From: a virus
Lineage: Duplodnaviria; Caudoviricetes
Virus record (IMG/VR): IMGVR_UViG_3300028025_002403
Span: 1 to 35,211 of that record
Reading direction: 5' to 3' (one strand)
Length of the DNA stretch: 35,211 nt
Shown here: one piece after another, positions 2,688 through 35,211 of the stretch
Numbering within the stretch: the first letter of the stretch is position 1
How the letters are laid out: each line of letters starts with the position of its first letter
Notes under the pieces: model-generated
Database searches by the model: none
The model's input: only the letters and a program-made list of their open reading frames with translations
What the model was told of the DNA's origin: nothing
Made by a program: the position numbers and the translations under genes

Positions 2688-3113
2688 TTACAGCTCTAAC
2701 GGGTACGTTTTAATTGGCTCGCTACTTTTTAGGTCAACATGACAAGCCCATTTAACCGACTCTTCTGCGCTAAGCCCCATTCTCATGCAGACCTCAGCGG
2801 CCATTGCGCCGCTACCTATTGCCATAAAAGTCTTAGCTCTTTCCCATTCCAAGTCATCCCCGCAATAAAAAAGACCGTCTTGGGTTAGTTTAATAAACGA
2901 GCTATCTGGTTTTAGCTTTGGCTTAGCCTTGGTTTTTTTATTGATGTAGTCAACAACCTTTTCGCAGTCAACCCAGTTTCCAGCAACGCCAAGCCAGCCG
3001 CCGTCAATAGCTACAACCTTTTCGTCAAAGTATTTAATACCAGTATCGTCGTCAGAAAATTGACTATCAGATACTAATATTTTTCTATTCCAGTCGCCGA
3101 TAATAGTAGTCAT
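2688..3113 (-). CDS. Ntn-hydrolase, proteasome-beta/HslV-like peptidase
   Basis: N-terminal M-TT-II, SDSQ, conserved K, GVAG, AIGSGA. Confidence 0.75.
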   Translation of the reverse strand: MTTIIGDWNRKILVSDSQFSDDDTGIKYFDEKVVAIDGGWLGVAGNWVDCEKVVDYINKKTKAKPKLKPDSSFIKLTQDGLFYCGDDLEWERAKTFMAIGSGAMAAEVCMRMGLSAEESVKWACHVDLKSSEPIKTYPLEL

Positions 3114-3115
3114 GT

Positions 3116-4081
3116 TTAAACTTTGTTAATACATCCCCTAAATTCAAACTCATCCTCGCCGCATACCTGGATAAGCTCAGGTAGCATAAGGCGCCCACGT
3201 TCAAAGGATAACAGGGCAAAACCTGATCGCCAATCCTTTGGGTTATCTTCGGTGTAATGTACGAATTGCTCTGAGTCTGGGTCTGCTAAGGTGCCAGTTT
3301 GCACCCCGTATCGCGTACCGTTGTAGTCTGTAATAGGCTGAACCGCTAAATTGTGAGTATGGCCAGTAATGATATTTACCCCAGAGTTAAGGGCATTAGA
3401 TCTACCAGCCGCAAACCCACCTTTCCAGCGATGTTTAATAACTGTATCTTCATTTACCCAGTAACTCCAGCAAGGTTTCCATAGTGGGAAGTGGTCTTTT
3501 AGAGTCATTCCTGGTACGCCCTCATACTGCGGAGCTTGCGCGGCTAAGAATGTTTCAAAGCGAGCATCGTGATTACCCATAGTCCAGATCAGCTCAGCGC
3601 CGATAGCGGCCTTTTCAATACCACTCATAAACTCTTGGCAAGCCTCCAGCTCTTCTTTAACCGATGGCGTCTTAGACCAACCGATACGGGGATGGCGTGA
3701 GGCTTGTGAGCCGTCAAATACGTCGCCGTTAGCGATCACTACCTTTGGTCTGAACTCTTTAATAATCATCAAGAGCGCTTTGTATGCGGTGGTATAGTCA
3801 TCTGGCCAGAAATGGGCGTCAGAAAATACAACTACGCGCCCTTTCTCCATCTCAATGCCACGTCTTGCGTTGCCAGGCGTTTGCTCTATTCTTTTGACTA
3901 TTGCATCTACTCTTTGACTATTAAAAGTATCTAGCGTGATGCCATACCTACATTCGATTGATCTACGGCGATTCATTACAGACCGAGGGTTTAATTTATG
4001 CTTTTGAGCGAATAGGTTGGGGCTACCTATTTTTTTCCACTCTTCAATGAATTGGTCGTCTGTAAGGTGATATCCTGACAT
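3116..4081 (-). CDS. calcineurin-like metallophosphoesterase with N-terminal helical domain
   Basis: all five motifs: SDAH, GDVFD, GNHD, KH, GHTH. Confidence 0.9.
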   Translation of the reverse strand: MSGYHLTDDQFIEEWKKIGSPNLFAQKHKLNPRSVMNRRRSIECRYGITLDTFNSQRVDAIVKRIEQTPGNARRGIEMEKGRVVVFSDAHFWPDDYTTAYKALLMIIKEFRPKVVIANGDVFDGSQASRHPRIGWSKTPSVKEELEACQEFMSGIEKAAIGAELIWTMGNHDARFETFLAAQAPQYEGVPGMTLKDHFPLWKPCWSYWVNEDTVIKHRWKGGFAAGRSNALNSGVNIITGHTHNLAVQPITDYNGTRYGVQTGTLADPDSEQFVHYTEDNPKDWRSGFALLSFERGRLMLPELIQVCGEDEFEFRGCINKV

Positions 4082-11957: not shown

Positions 11958-12230
11958 ATGGCTTATTCCGCAACTGGTTTAGTAACATTAGGTGCATCAA
12001 AATCTGGTAATGCACCATCAATGTTTTTGTACAAAACTGCTGACACACAAGCAACTGTTAATACCGCTGGTTATTTTGCGGCATTAAAAGACTTGATGGA
12101 AGTTGGCGATATCATCTTTATTTATGACACAACTACGCCTAGCCTAGTTTTGACATACGTAAACCAAGTAACTTCAACTTCTGTTGATATTGCTGATGGT
12201 ACAACTGTAAGTGCAACTGATACTGATTAA
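11958..12230 (+). CDS. small structural protein (head decoration/minor capsid candidate)
   Basis: TAAGGAG RBS, directly after MCP, YKTADTQATVNTAGYF...VGDII. Confidence 0.65.
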   Translation: MAYSATGLVTLGASKSGNAPSMFLYKTADTQATVNTAGYFAALKDLMEVGDIIFIYDTTTPSLVLTYVNQVTSTSVDIADGTTVSATDTD

Positions 12231-29779: not shown

Positions 29780-29947
29780 TTAGATCACCGTTTCCGTTCT
29801 AGCCTCAAACCAGGCTGATAAGCTGATAGCGTAGCGCGCTACTTCTGCGGCCATCTCACTAGCTCGTTCGTGATTATTCGCTTGCGCGGCCTTGTGTACC
29901 TCTTGCATGAGGCGATTAATACGCAATAAGTATTCTGAGTAATCCAT
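29780..29947 (-). CDS. hypothetical protein (55 aa, not in ORF track)
   Basis: MDYSEYLLRINRLMQEVHKAAQANNHERASEMAAEVARYAISLSAWFEARTETVI; AAGGAG RBS. Confidence 0.7.
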   Translation of the reverse strand: MDYSEYLLRINRLMQEVHKAAQANNHERASEMAAEVARYAISLSAWFEARTETVI

Positions 29948-30171
29948 TATTTGCTACTCCTTTTGGGTGTTGATACCAGCCAGTAACGTTTCCATTTACG
30001 GGCGCCCTCTGACTCAAACTCGTCAGCGATCTTAAAGCCAGCGCGGCGTAAGTCATGGATGTACTTGGCCAGCCTGGTAATGCCGTAGGTTGTAATTGCA
30101 TCCCAGCTAGTAATACCTTTTTTACGCTTGATAAGATGCTCTTCTATAAGTTGTTGTTGAGTTAAGCTCAT
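29947..30171 (-). CDS. winged HTH protein (HTH_39-like)
   Basis: ITSWDAITTYGITRLAKYIHDLRRAGFKI. Confidence 0.8.
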   Translation of the reverse strand: MSLTQQQLIEEHLIKRKKGITSWDAITTYGITRLAKYIHDLRRAGFKIADEFESEGARKWKRYWLVSTPKRSSK

Positions 30172-30978: not shown

Positions 30979-31154
30979 TTTTTTAAATCCTCCATGAATT
31001 TGTTAACTAACTTCTCTCTGCGAGCCAAGCGAATACGCCTGGCTAAATCTGAATCCATAATTGCTATGTAGGCACTGGCTAGAATGACGACTGACATCAA
31101 GGCGCATCCAAAAACCAATACCATGAATAGCATTAGGCTAAAGAACTCATACAT
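30975..31154 (-). CDS. single-pass membrane protein (59 aa, not in ORF track)
   Basis: MYEFFSLMLFMVLVFGCALMSVVILASAYIAIM followed by a basic tail; GAGGAG RBS. Confidence 0.7.
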   Translation of the reverse strand: MYEFFSLMLFMVLVFGCALMSVVILASAYIAIMDSDLARRIRLARREKLVNKFMEDLKK

Positions 31155-31798
31155 TCAACTCTCCTCATTAGTTTTGCTACTTGGGCTGGATGCCATTGGC
31201 TATTGCCTTTGGCGGTTTTGATACCGCGATTCTCTAATCCGATAGCGATATCTCGTAGGTTGCCACCTACTCTTGCTACTACTTCTTTTAGGCTTGGCGC
31301 TACTTGCATAGCGTAAGCATTAGACTTGGCAATGATGGCCTCTACGCCACGCTTAGAGCCGAGTTCTGGGTTTGGACTACCTAAGACAGTACCGCGCTCT
31401 TTGGCGGCCTGTAAGGCTGATTTAGTACGCTCTGAGATCTTGCGAGCCTCCCACTCTGCGAATACTGCGGCCATCTGTAAGAAGGTACGATCTGCCTCTG
31501 GCATATCTGCGGCTACAAACTGCACACCAGACTCCAGGAGGCCAGAGATAAAGTGAACGTTACGGGCAAGACGATCTAGCTTGGCGATAACTAAAGTAGC
31601 CTTATGCTTTTTAGCTAAGGCCAGAGCTTGCGCGAGCTGAGGGCGATCGTTCTTACGGCCAGACTCAACCTCTGTAAATTCAGCTACAAGCTGAGCGTCT
31701 TTGATAAAGGCTTTAACGGCTGACTGCTGAGCCTCCAGGCCAAGGCCTGACTGACCTTGGCGCTGGGTTGATACGCGATAGTAGGCTACGTAGCTCAT
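31133..31798 (-). CDS. serine recombinase (resolvase/invertase family) with short C-terminal DNA-binding region
   Basis: YYRVST (catalytic Ser), ESG...RPQL, KLDRLARN, AEWE...ISERTK..L..AK.RG..LG. Confidence 0.95.
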   Translation of the reverse strand: MSYVAYYRVSTQRQGQSGLGLEAQQSAVKAFIKDAQLVAEFTEVESGRKNDRPQLAQALALAKKHKATLVIAKLDRLARNVHFISGLLESGVQFVAADMPEADRTFLQMAAVFAEWEARKISERTKSALQAAKERGTVLGSPNPELGSKRGVEAIIAKSNAYAMQVAPSLKEVVARVGGNLRDIAIGLENRGIKTAKGNSQWHPAQVAKLMRRVECMSSLA

Positions 31799-32010
31799 AC
31801 AGTTACCTCACCGCGTGTATCTGTATGCTCAAAGAAATAAAACTTAACTTGATTGATAAGTTGGTTGGCTTGCTCGGTTCTACCCATTGCAATCAACTCT
31901 TGCGCGTCTGACAGTAAGCCAGCAACATACATATTGATATTGTATTGAGCGCTAAAATGCTTGCTTAGCGCCTCTTCTGTACAACCTAACATTTTTAATT
32001 CTGTACTCAT
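31795..32010 (-). CDS. hypothetical protein, first gene of leftward operon
   Basis: MSTELKMLGC...; AGGAG RBS before ATG 32010. Confidence 0.7.
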   Translation of the reverse strand: MSTELKMLGCTEEALSKHFSAQYNINMYVAGLLSDAQELIAMGRTEQANQLINQVKFYFFEHTDTRGEVTV

Positions 32011-32039
32011 GGTGTTAACTCCTGTATCTCGGTGGTTAA

Positions 32040-32053
32040 TAGCGATATCGCTA
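32040..32053. promoter_or_regulatory. perfect 14-bp palindrome (candidate operator or res core)
   Basis: TAGCGATATCGCTA just downstream of the leftward -10. Confidence 0.6.
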
Positions 32054-32059
32054 AGTGAT

Positions 32060-32087
32060 AATTTAACACAGTCAGAATGGTGGTCAA
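32060..32087 (-). promoter_or_regulatory. leftward sigma70 promoter
   Basis: minus strand TTGACC-N16-TAAATT with TG extension. Confidence 0.65.
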
Positions 32088-32103
32088 GCACAATATGTTG
32101 TGT
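32088..32103. promoter_or_regulatory. NrdR box 1
   Basis: GCACAATATGTTGTGT, 14/16 to consensus acaCwAtATaTwGtgt with all core positions kept. Confidence 0.7.
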
Positions 32104-32140
32104 TTGTTGTAAAAAAGTCTAAGGAATACCCTAATACGCA

Positions 32141-32156
32141 ACACTACATCTTGTGT
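32141..32156. promoter_or_regulatory. NrdR box 2
   Basis: ACACTACATCTTGTGT, 14/16 to consensus; 53 bp from box 1. Confidence 0.7.
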
Positions 32157-32172
32157 TTTCTTAATGTATGAT
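32144..32172 (+). promoter_or_regulatory. rightward promoter (-10 TATGAT, weak -35 inside NrdR box 2)
   Basis: TATGAT at 32167-32172; predicted +1 near 32179. Confidence 0.5.
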
Positions 32173-32178
32173 CTGAGA

Positions 32179-32251
32179 TATCGGGTAGTACTGACACTAT
32201 TCAGCTCAAGTACCGCGAGGCCGAACGACTAAAAAGACTTGCTACCCGATG
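32179..32251 (+). ncRNA. closed multi-stem leader RNA or candidate small RNA
   Basis: ATCGGGTAGTA pairs with TGCTACCCGAT; encloses CTGA-cactat-TCAG and CC-GCGA-GG hairpins. Confidence 0.55.
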
Positions 32252-32270
32252 CCTATAACTGGAGATCAGA

Positions 32271-32444
32271 ATGACCTTACTAATTCCATTCCTGGTGCGC
32301 TTGCGGCCAGATGTTTATAGCCTCTTGCAGACCGTATCTAAAGACCGTAGCAAGTCCATAGCGGCCGTAATCAATGAAGAGTTGAGCAATGCCCTGAGTA
32401 AGAGCGCTGACCTTGATACACGCCTGGATAAGTTGTTAGGATGA
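32271..32444 (+). CDS. Arc-like ribbon-helix-helix regulator (57 aa, not in ORF track)
   Basis: PFLVRLRPDVYSLLQTVSKDRSKSIAAVINEEL; GGAG RBS; first gene of rightward operon. Confidence 0.75.
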   Translation: MTLLIPFLVRLRPDVYSLLQTVSKDRSKSIAAVINEELSNALSKSADLDTRLDKLLG

Positions 32445-32800
32445 TTGTCCTAAATCTGCCATTCCCACCCAGCGTTAATACGTATTACAGACGCGGCGCT
32501 CATGCTACTTACATGAGTAAGCAAGGGCGCGAATATAAGAAGGCCGTAGCTGAGTACATCGCTGAGAGCAACACGCCTAAGCTGGGCGCGGCAAGGCTTA
32601 GCCTGGAGATCGTGCTATGGCCCAAAGACAAGCGTAAATACGATATCGATAACCGCATCAAGGCCTTGTTAGATAGCTTGCAAGATGCTGGCGTATTCGA
32701 TGACGATGAGCAGATAGATCAGATCAACGTCTATCGCGGTACTGGTGAGCATAAAGGTGGCCAGGCAAGGGTTTTAATATGGTTAGAAGGTGAGCAATGA
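32441..32800 (+). CDS. rusA: RusA-family Holliday junction resolvase
   Basis: LPFPPSVNTYY, DIDNRIKALLDSL..AGVFDDDEQI. Confidence 0.92.
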   Translation: MIVLNLPFPPSVNTYYRRGAHATYMSKQGREYKKAVAEYIAESNTPKLGAARLSLEIVLWPKDKRKYDIDNRIKALLDSLQDAGVFDDDEQIDQINVYRGTGEHKGGQARVLIWLEGEQ

Positions 32801-33393
32801 AGGTATTAGTAGCTTGTGAGTTTAGCGGTACTGTTAGGGATGCTTTTATCAAAGCTGGCCATGATGCTATGAGTTGCGATTTAGAGCCAACTTCTACACA
32901 AGGACCGCATTATCAAGGCGATGTAATGGATATTATTAATGATGGATGGGATTTAATGATCGCTCACCCACCATGCACTCACTTGGCCGTATCAGGCGCT
33001 AGGCATTTTTCTAAGAAGATCGCGGATGGGCGCCAGCAACAGGGTATTGACTTCTTTATGGCATTGGCCAACTCAAACATACCTAAATACGCTATTGAGA
33101 ACCCAATAGGAATTATGAGTAGCAAGTGGCGTAAACCAGATCAGATTATCAATCCTTGGGAGTATGGCCATAGCGTTACCAAAGCTACTTGCTTATGGTT
33201 AAAGGGTTTGCCGCCTCTTAAACCTACAAACGTTGTAGATAAGGGAGTTGTATGGGTTGCCAAGAGTGGTAAAAGGATGAGTCAATGGTATTACGATAGC
33301 TCTTGCTTACCACCTAAAGAGAGAGAACGCATGAGGAATAAGACTTTTCAAGGGATAGCTGATGCAATGGCAGAGCAATGGGGCGCGGTATGA
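32797..33393 (+). CDS. C5 DNA cytosine methyltransferase-like protein (short form)
   Basis: VLVACEFSG, WDLMIAHPPC (catalytic PC), IENP, K.TCLW. Confidence 0.7.
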   Translation: MKVLVACEFSGTVRDAFIKAGHDAMSCDLEPTSTQGPHYQGDVMDIINDGWDLMIAHPPCTHLAVSGARHFSKKIADGRQQQGIDFFMALANSNIPKYAIENPIGIMSSKWRKPDQIINPWEYGHSVTKATCLWLKGLPPLKPTNVVDKGVVWVAKSGKRMSQWYYDSSCLPPKERERMRNKTFQGIADAMAEQWGAV

Positions 33394-33587
33394 GCCACGA
33401 GAATGATGTATATACAAAGGCCGTAGAGGCTGATAGTTCAATTACTGGCAAGCGCTGGTGTAGCAACTGCCAGATGGGTAAAGATTATCGGAATGGAGCA
33501 TGGATAATAAGCGCAAACAAAAGGCAAAAAAGGTGGATGTGCAAGGACTGTTACGAGCGGAAGTTAGTGAGGGAGAACCGCAAGTAA
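33390..33587 (+). CDS. small Zn-ribbon protein
   Basis: WCSNC...WMCKDC; ATGA overlap with MTase-like gene. Confidence 0.7.
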   Translation: MSHENDVYTKAVEADSSITGKRWCSNCQMGKDYRNGAWIISANKRQKRWMCKDCYERKLVRENRK

Positions 33588-33850
33588 ATGAGGACAGGCT
33601 CAGATGTTTCGCTTGTAATCAAATTCACCCAGGAGGGCGGTTACTTCGTTTGCCTAATGGCCAGACAGTCGGAAGTTACTCGGAAGAGTACCGCTTGTAT
33701 GCTGAGGCTAGAACCGTACTTAAAAGATTTACAACTCGAAAGACCAGGCAACTGCACCTCGCGAGGGTGGCAGAGATGCGTGGCCATGCTGGCTATGACG
33801 CACTCCGCAACGCCATGCTAGAGATATACAACCGAGAGAATAAAGAATGA
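33500..33850 (+). CDS. hypothetical protein (start uncertain)
   Basis: CFAC..H, YSEEYRLYAEAR...R...L..V...RG pattern seen in phage early genes. Confidence 0.55.
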   Translation: MDNKRKQKAKKVDVQGLLRAEVSEGEPQVNEDRLRCFACNQIHPGGRLLRLPNGQTVGSYSEEYRLYAEARTVLKRFTTRKTRQLHLARVAEMRGHAGYDALRNAMLEIYNRENKE

Positions 33851-34122
33851 TTAAATGTATCGTTAAGGATTGTGAAAACCATAAGCATGAGGGTGGTTCT
33901 GCTGGTGATGTTTGTATGCCATGCTACGAATTTATAACTACTGGCAAAGGTATATATTCTCAGGCTTACAGAAATACATTGCTTAAAGATTTAACTGACG
34001 AAATCTATCAACTTAAAGAGATTATGTATTACGCAATCAAGGCTGGAGACTGGAAAGTAGATGGCGCTTGCGACCCATCTGAGTTGCTTGATGACTTTGT
34101 ACCTAAAGGCCAGGATATATGA
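33847..34122 (+). CDS. hypothetical Cys-containing protein
   Basis: CIVKDC...CMPC, GDWKVDGACDP. Confidence 0.65.
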   Translation: MIKCIVKDCENHKHEGGSAGDVCMPCYEFITTGKGIYSQAYRNTLLKDLTDEIYQLKEIMYYAIKAGDWKVDGACDPSELLDDFVPKGQDI

Positions 34123-34298
34123 TCTGCGTATTACCTGAGTGCGATAGTCAAGATATCAAGGTAGTGGACTCACGCCCGCATGATGGCATGAATTGGATTC
34201 GCAGACGTAGGCTCTGTATGGCTTGCGGGTACAGATGGAATACGATTGAGTTGGCTGAGTTTGAGCTAGATGATTTAACTGGTTGCCAAGATGAGTAA
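34119..34298 (+). CDS. NrdR N-terminal zinc-ribbon homologue lacking ATP-cone (59 aa, not in ORF track)
   Basis: MICVLPECDSQDIKVVDSRPHDGMNWIRRRRLCMACGYRWNTIE matches NrdR signature C..C...KVxDSR...RRRRxCxxCxxRFxTxE; ATGA overlap. Confidence 0.88.
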   Translation: MICVLPECDSQDIKVVDSRPHDGMNWIRRRRLCMACGYRWNTIELAEFELDDLTGCQDE

Positions 34299-34503
34299 TA
34301 TAGGATTAGTATTACGAAACGGGGCCATAACCCAGCCCTTTGGAATGGAGTATCGCCAGACCAAGATAAACGCAGTCGAATCACTAGGGATGACCATCGA
34401 ACAGATCGGGCCTAGCATAGTGAGAGCCAAAGAAGGCTTAGACACAGCGATAAACGATAGATACATCGCGAAAGCGATATCAACCCCTTTTTATAGCGGG
34501 TGA
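34291..34503 (+). CDS. hypothetical protein
   Basis: 70-aa ORF overlapping upstream stop; no motif recognised. Confidence 0.4.
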   Translation: MSNIGLVLRNGAITQPFGMEYRQTKINAVESLGMTIEQIGPSIVRAKEGLDTAINDRYIAKAISTPFYSG

Positions 34504-34512
34504 GGTTCTATT

Positions 34513-35028
34513 GTGTTTAACGCAGAAGGTAAAAAGTTCTTAATTCCCAAACAACCAAAGGTAAAGCTAAAGCCAGCATTACCAGATAGACGGCAGATAG
34601 CCGTATTGCCACTCAGAGCGATACAAGACAAGACCCTCAATCACGCCGCAGTCAGAGTCTTGGCTCTGGTATGCAGTTACGCCAACAGAGCTGGAATAAC
34701 CTGGGTCGGGCAAGCTCGCCTTGCTAGTGATATTGGGGTTACTTTCAGAGCTATATCAAGACAAATAAATATATTAAAAAAAAAGAAATACATAGAAATA
34801 CTCGTCAAGGGCGGGAAACTCAGCCATACCGCGACGATGAGAGTGATTTACAACCCTACAATCGGGGTTGATGATGCGATAGCGTTACAGACCGATGATA
34901 TGAGAAGTCCAGCGATGGCAATACTAGAGGAGATGGAGATGGAAAAGAAGCTCAGCAAGGCATCTAAACGTGCCTTGCCAGAATCGACGTTTCAGCACCA
35001 GCAAATACCCCTCATTGCTTTTGCTTAG
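34513..35028 (+). CDS. HTH replication-initiator-like protein, probably truncated by inversion at about 34967
   Basis: DKTLNHAAVRVLALVCSYANRAG..W.GQARLA...GVT.RAISRQI..L...YI wHTH; last ~20 codons are the inverted copy of 1-91. Confidence 0.7.
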   Translation: MFNAEGKKFLIPKQPKVKLKPALPDRRQIAVLPLRAIQDKTLNHAAVRVLALVCSYANRAGITWVGQARLASDIGVTFRAISRQINILKKKKYIEILVKGGKLSHTATMRVIYNPTIGVDDAIALQTDDMRSPAMAILEEMEMEKKLSKASKRALPESTFQHQQIPLIAFA

Positions 35029-35057
35029 AGGGGGGTACCCTTGACTTATCCCTATTC
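34967..35057. repeat. 91-bp exact inverted repeat, right copy
   Basis: reverse complement of 1-91. Confidence 0.95.
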
Positions 35058-35086
35058 CATACCACCGTTTGGTTCGCATACAAGCC

Positions 35087-35209
35087 TTATTCCACCGTTA
35101 GTAGGCTCTTGCTGAACTCCAGAATGGTATCTGGCTCGCCTGTCCTAGCCCTGAGCCATAGTTCTAGGCACTCGGTCAGCTCTGACTCCAATATCTCAGC
35201 CATTGCTAT
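35087..35209 (-). CDS. 3' fragment of a gene running off the window (candidate true C-terminus of the replication protein)
   Basis: open frame IAMAEILESELTECLELWLRARTGEPDTILEFSKSLLTVE-stop. Confidence 0.45.
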   Translation of the reverse strand: MAMAEILESELTECLELWLRARTGEPDTILEFSKSLLTVE

Positions 35210-35211
35210 CC

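Follow-up and report, generated by a model that had tools for sequence, protein, structure and literature searches.

Why would a phage carry the DNA-binding part of NrdR without its sensor, together with NrdR-type boxes at its own early promoters, and which protein reads these boxes? The question is raised by a virus record of 35.2 kb, rated complete and with podovirus-like head and tail genes, the whole of which (35,211 nucleotides) is the window analysed here. A sequence-only reading of this DNA had suggested that host NrdR gates early transcription on host dNTP status, and that the truncated phage protein either poisons host NrdR or acts as a nucleotide-blind repressor.

The mini-NrdR and the early control region

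Early genes are organized in two divergent operons. The leftward operon holds a small serine recombinase (31133..31798, minus strand) with RecE-like and RecT-like genes. The rightward operon starts at 32271 with a predicted Arc/CopG-like ribbon-helix-helix (RHH) protein (32271..32444, plus strand), continues with the RusA resolvase (32441..32800, plus), a methyltransferase, a DUF7696 gene and the mini-NrdR (34119..34298, plus), and is closed by a replication initiator-like HTH protein (34513..35028, plus). Positions 1-91 and 34967-35057, at the two ends of the contig, are exact inverted copies of each other, probably an assembly artefact that shortens this last ORF. An HslV-like peptidase and a metallophosphoesterase (2688-4081, minus) lie between the small and large terminase genes, on the opposite strand. 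No ribonucleotide reductase and no CI-like protein were found among the 55 ORFs in the PHROGs scan (24 of them also scanned with Pfam), as the sequence-only reading had stated, but the genome is not free of candidate repressors, with the weakly matched Arc-like protein and a winged helix protein (29947-30171, a domain match) both present. A full integrase was not found either, the window holding only a resolvase-type domain, and the homologue of the recombinase in Methylophilales phage MEP301 is judged likely non-functional as an integrase in the accessible part of its description (PMC8024684).

Pfam, PDB and model comparisons all describe the mini-NrdR as a protein of 59 amino acids made of a zinc ribbon and one C-terminal helix. 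It matches PF22811 (Zn_ribbon_NrdR) with an E-value of 5e-16, its PDB sequence matches are exclusively to NrdR, and its predicted model (pLDDT 87.7), an NrdR ribbon with a helix at residues 47-56, retrieved NrdR chains at ranks 1-13 of a structure search (rmsd 1.5-2.3 Å, best E-value 1.4e-3). The cysteine pairs of a zinc ribbon are present, the first as C-x4-C. No ATP-cone follows the ribbon, since a stop codon comes after the single helix here and in all relatives, and the earlier description of a zinc-ribbon-only NrdR gene in the rightward operon is thus confirmed. According to the accessible text on Streptomyces coelicolor NrdR, D15 and R17 read bases, while residues 12, 26-29 and 37 contact the backbone (PMC9110341), and the ribbons of Escherichia coli NrdR are described, in the part of that paper available, as dimerising via R27, R29 and E42 (PMC12176259). 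With a numbering shift of +2, the first set corresponds to D17, R19, K14, R28-R31 and R39 in the window, position 12 being Lys as in E. coli, and the dimer bridge corresponds to R29, R31 and E44, which are invariant in 22 aligned proteins. The mini-NrdR has therefore kept the base-reading (D15/R17), backbone-binding (RRRR, R37) and dimer residues of NrdR. Within the phage, no ribonucleotide reductase gene for it to control was found among the 55 ORFs scanned.

Two NrdR-type palindromes of 16 bp lie between the operons: box 1, GCACAATATGTTGTGT (32088-32103), directly adjoins the leftward -35 and box 2, ACACTACATCTTGTGT (32141-32156), covers the -35/spacer stretch of the rightward promoter. The leftward promoter (32060..32087, minus) is a sigma70-like prediction of the promoter scan, with a -35 TTGACC at 32087-32082 and an extended -10 TAAATT at 32065-32060; the rightward -10, TATGAT (32167-32172, plus), was read in the sequence and is absent from the scan output. 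Both promoters are consensus matches only. A loose search with the NrdR box consensus gave 16 matches at 3 mismatches against 14.9 expected, which is not significant alone, and at 1 mismatch it found box 1 and box 2 only. Boxes of clades D2 and D3 (7 in all, with the window's own clade excluded) were used for a matrix, which scored box 1 at 22.4 bits and box 2 at 20.4 bits; the next site in the genome scored 11.5 bits and the best across 200 shuffled genomes 17.8 bits. The boxes noticed earlier at the divergent early promoters are thus the top two sites of the genome, and they are paired 16-bp palindromes with conserved C/G, as in host NrdR operators. The layout is kept in relatives, where box 1 abuts the leftward -35 (TTGAC, kept in the long variants) or overlies the extended -10 in short variants, and where box 2 is just upstream of the rightward -10, whose place is taken by TATGAT, TATGCT or TACAAT. 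In clade D3, box 2 lies exactly between TTGCAC and the -10 at 17-bp spacing. Two relatives (L126 at 3696 and L135 at 4474; 11-13 bits) have a possible third box, of the Glu type described below, some 3.3 kb inside the leftward operon.

Other elements share this region. A perfect palindrome, TAGCGATATCGCTA (32040..32053), at the predicted leftward start and a second GATATC (32177..32182) at the predicted rightward start are candidate sites of the Arc-like protein; neither this gene nor these sites figured in the sequence-only reading. GATATC sites are found at both predicted starts in relatives, and sites of this type persist in box-less relatives too, although with 32 copies in the window GATATC is informative by position only. 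The Arc-like assignment itself comes from weak matches (PDB E-values of 0.22-0.95, and an Atlas RHH_1 cluster of 0.91 at rank 8), with no family match in the Pfam and PHROGs scans. Between the boxes, a motif of the AGG..ACCCTA type (TAGG..ACCCTA, 32120..32133) is conserved, also in box-less relatives, and is probably a host-factor site. A leader RNA hairpin (32180..32250, plus), confined to clades D1 and E1, shows compensatory change at two of its pairs across 14 distinct sequences and has a z-score of -1.8 alone; it is present in 20 of the 53 typed phages, with other leaders in its place in L084 and clade D3. Rfam had no match in 31700-35211, and the hairpin is possibly an antitermination or translation element.

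Boxes and recognition residues in related phages

Relatives were collected by alignments of the recombinase, RHH and mini-NrdR proteins and by a DNA pattern independent of the boxes. This gave 245 loci with an RHH gene and the GCGATATC palindrome, or 79 after dereplication, with the window's own contig (L286) excluded and L298 and L299 left out of the dereplicated set. Two boxes are present in 73 of the 79 loci, the remaining 6 being one more distant clade, so that the conservation on which the earlier proposal depended was found. The switch and the mini gene occur together in 53 phages, with the gene 955-3200 bp downstream, and the 20 boxed loci without it either are stubs of 600 bp or stop short of rep. 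Six relatives with the RHH gene (L079, L082, L083, which is the complete record G001, L206, L207 and the complete MEP301) have neither a PF22811 match nor any box above 10.9 bits. Boxes and truncated nrdR, whose co-occurrence the sequence-only reading had proposed to test, are thus together in 53 phages and both missing in six.

The 53 phages fall into two types according to NrdR positions 15-17, which are D-S-R in 14 and E-T-R in 39, and the boxes follow this division. Box 1 reads [AG]CACAA..TTGTGT in 14/14 Asp phages and in 0/39 Glu phages; the box type is ACAA..TTGT with Asp (14/14) and CTA..TAG with Glu (39/39). The fifth position of the half-site is T in all 156 Glu half-sites (CTA) and A in 46 of the 56 Asp half-sites (CAA). 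Five protein columns separate the two types cleanly (window 17, 18, 34, 39 and 41), those that correspond to D15, S16 and R37 among them. The boxes on the predicted promoters thus change with residue 17 of the mini-NrdR.

The history of this match was followed in trees with 11-14 Asp rows each, from which identical and short rows were dropped. The Asp/Glu split is one branch in the mini-NrdR tree (support 94) and in the RHH tree (88). It is not rejected for the recombinase (p-AU 0.58), which co-segregates with box type, or for orf70 (0.12), and it is rejected for RusA (0.019), which does not co-segregate, DUF7696 (0.0004) and rep (0.0002), so that the genes flanking the mini gene on both sides give different trees. 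At the DNA level, the window and its best Glu relative (clade E1) share 89% identity in the leader, 86% in RusA, 91% in DUF7696 and 88% in orf70, against 72% in the mini gene, 72% in the RHH gene and 77% in the recombinase. Identities and trees together indicate three separate islands, namely the boxes, the RHH gene and the mini gene, which remained matched to one another through the exchange of their surroundings. The Asp-to-Glu change has a single origin on the tree, and the residue-box match therefore counts as one event. A mini-NrdR tree without the 8 Asp/Glu columns follows the backbone, a circular test that was not used as evidence.

Asp and Glu phages form one close group, with TerL 86-89% and tail proteins 83-88% identical, and tail fibres vary without a clear Asp/Glu split. 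The recent exchange of DNA between the two types (86-91%) points to shared hosts, which argues against two types of host NrdR. A search of bacterial genomes with the RHH alignment for prophages or hosts returned 2 weak matches and no usable host.

Candidate readers of the boxes

We consider it probable that the mini-NrdR is the phage's own nucleotide-blind autorepressor, with a predicted dimer on each box lowering both early promoters. Of the roles offered for it by the sequence-only reading, that of a nucleotide-blind repressor is the best supported, on the basis of residue-box covariation, the contact residues that were kept, the joint absence of gene and boxes in some relatives and the single box upstream of the mini gene in a second phage lineage (below), and poisoning of host NrdR is possible, judging from the dimer residues retained in the sequence. 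The protein would dimerise like NrdR ribbon pairs, bind both boxes and damp both promoters once the rightward operon is expressed. As the mini gene itself is in that operon, the effect would be a delayed negative feedback that, in the course of infection, damps the early genes for recombination and replication regardless of ATP/dATP. The Arc-like protein may form a second layer at the GATATC sites, maybe jointly with the mini-NrdR, and the Asp and Glu versions would be two operator specificities, akin to immunity types.

A more extensive version of this idea, which we regard as unlikely as a whole, is that phages made the NrdR ribbon into sensor-free repressors with switchable operators, that the Asp type also frees the host reductase for a phage in which none was found, either through pairing with host NrdR or by occupying the operators of the latter, and that host NrdR in turn reads the phage boxes.

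The spacing of the boxes bears on whether host NrdR could be the reader. In the window they are 53 bp apart from start to start, with a 37-bp spacer, and across the 73 loci the distances are 40 (5 loci), 43 (11), 44 (1), 45 (10), 52-55 (35) and 62-63 bp (11). As far as the accessible part of the paper states, host NrdR uses spacers of 14-17 or 24-27 bp, those above 27 bp being untested there, and full-length NrdR needs two boxes and cannot bind a single one (PMC12051234); a bare mini-NrdR dimer may therefore bind weakly. The 37-bp spacer of the window is outside both of these ranges. The usual 30-33 bp spacing occurs in 0/73 loci and 40-43 bp in 16/73, leaving 57/73 outside known ranges. The distances group around 4, 5 and 6 turns of the helix (40-45, 52-55 and 62-63 bp), which suggests binding on the same face of the DNA and fits both an autorepressor and host NrdR, since spacing near whole turns would also suit a tetramer that bridges the boxes, host NrdR for example.

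The proposal that host NrdR gates early transcription on dATP/ATP is weakened by these spacings and by the 39 of 53 relatives with the other box, which tracks the phage's own residue. In its full form, which we hold to be distinctly unlikely, the mini-NrdR would pair with the zinc ribbons of host NrdR and break its tetramer, which would free host nrdAB as well as the phage promoters, and the Asp and Glu types would mirror the NrdRs of two hosts. The Asp-type boxes do fit the bacterial pattern, the near-whole-turn spacings and the 16/73 loci in the accepted 40-43 bp range are compatible with it, and so are the retained dimer residues and the lack of any phage reductase among the ORFs scanned; some Comamonadaceae NrdRs have Glu-Thr-Arg at positions 15-17. 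Nevertheless, the close relationship of Asp and Glu phages, with DNA swapped between them, speaks for shared hosts, the second phage lineage described below has single boxes, and poisoning alone would give no need to retain a DNA-reading face.

A role of the Arc-like protein as reader or co-reader of the boxes, by itself or complexed with the mini-NrdR, is improbable in our judgement, even though RHH co-segregates with box type equally well: its tree splits by box type and it stays matched despite swapped neighbours, having DNA of the Glu type on both sides in the window. Its predicted base-reading strand is constant across box types, with PFLVRL in 73/79 loci, Asp and Glu types alike, and in L206, L207 and MEP301, and PFMVRL in the 6 box-less loci; box-less phages also keep the GATATC sites.

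It is very improbable, in our estimate, that the host chromosome is the main target, with the mini-NrdR sitting on host nrd operators, either as a repressor or in place of the host's own, and with the phage boxes serving only to limit its dose. The Asp-type protein shares its reading residues with host NrdR, and stand-alone viral ribbons are common, many without nearby boxes, but Glu-type proteins (39/53) are paired with a different box. Finally, linkage of boxes and mini gene by descent only, as leftovers without present interaction, would agree with the single origin of the Asp/Glu split and is scarcely credible given that both are intact in 53/53 phages, matched across recombination and jointly missing in six relatives.

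Known systems and other mini-NrdRs

The autorepressor proposed here for the mini-NrdR shares with bacterial NrdR (S. coelicolor 7P37/7P3F; E. coli 9FXK, 9FVR and 9GEX) the zinc-ribbon fold, D15/R17, the RRRR stretch, the dimer bridge and tandem 16-bp palindromic boxes over promoters. It differs in having one C-terminal helix in place of the ATP-cone, in its predicted targets, which are phage early promoters and not reductase genes, in box spacing (40-63 bp, not 31-32), in a Glu variant with an altered box and in predicted autoregulation. In Proteobacteria, autoregulation has never been found for NrdR according to the accessible text of PMC5343134.

Small early-switch repressors with operators between divergent promoters are represented by lambda Cro and P22 Arc/Mnt. 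Like them, the mini-NrdR is a small predicted repressor from the rightward early operon with operators between divergent promoters and specificity variants among relatives; unlike them, it is built from the NrdR zinc ribbon and its gene is 1-3 kb from the sites. In contrast to phage early-switch repressors, neither a CI partner nor a full integrase was found with it, so that a lysis/lysogeny switch is not supported. The closest cultured relative found is MEP301, a phage of marine OM43 bacteria (TerL 76%), which resembles the window in genome size, small serine recombinase, YqaJ, RusA and an RHH protein with the PFLVRL strand, but has no mini-NrdR and no boxes.

Phage genes labelled 'transcriptional regulator NrdR' or nrdR appear in table rows of the accessible parts of PMC8790148 and PMC10294663. 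The domain of such genes (PF22811) is the same and is already in databases; operator, mechanism and missing sensor are not described in the portions of these sources available. In the open literature searched, which was partly accessible and included PMC13670838, we found no account of a sensor-less NrdR in phages or of operators for one; in the accessible text, the word 'phage' is absent from PMC9110341 and PMC12176259, and 'NrdR' from PMC8024684. Genes of this class carry the database label 'NrdR' in many uncultured phages; our reading offers a testable function for them and cautions against taking the label to mean nucleotide sensing. With its matched boxes, the Asp/Glu pair would be a natural specificity switch at a residue shown to confer NrdR specificity, usable to probe how the ribbon reads DNA and functions without an ATP-cone, and if the mini-NrdR also pairs with host NrdR, the phage would have a route to higher host dNTP supply.

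Stand-alone NrdR ribbons are widespread and common in viruses. PF22811-type ribbons number 9737 representatives at E-values up to 0.001, full-length NrdR included, and most of the best 150 of these 9737 are under 125 amino acids, with viral clusters also in Atlas. A divergent ribbon (E-S-R, no RRRR) lies past the small terminase in L212 (9215-9406) and L225 (8578-8769), neither with boxes at the switch. Synechococcus phage S-CRES1 (L305, OQ587939.1) has an unannotated mini-NrdR (E-S-R, about 11995-12195) and its own reductase, with no box in the 24 kb searched, and no intergenic box was found near the mini gene in L315-L320 and 14 further loci (L322-L335). In genome G009, four exact box matches (C1, positions 601, 767, 14958 and 25760; none in the reversed control) include one inside the mini gene itself. 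As a third example of boxes with a mini-NrdR, this genome (locus L114) was rejected, all four matches being in coding DNA. Together, the mini-NrdRs with no intergenic box nearby weigh against the proposed autorepressor as a general arrangement.

A second phage lineage has its mini-NrdR gene between the large terminase and portal genes. At 74-93 bp upstream of it, a single core C[AT]A.AT.T[AT]G is found in 5 of 7 distinct loci against 0.02 expected; the exceptions are L306, with one mismatch, and L311, which has no intergenic gap. The five loci with the core (L003, L310, L312, L313 and L314) have surrounding DNA that is otherwise unalignable.
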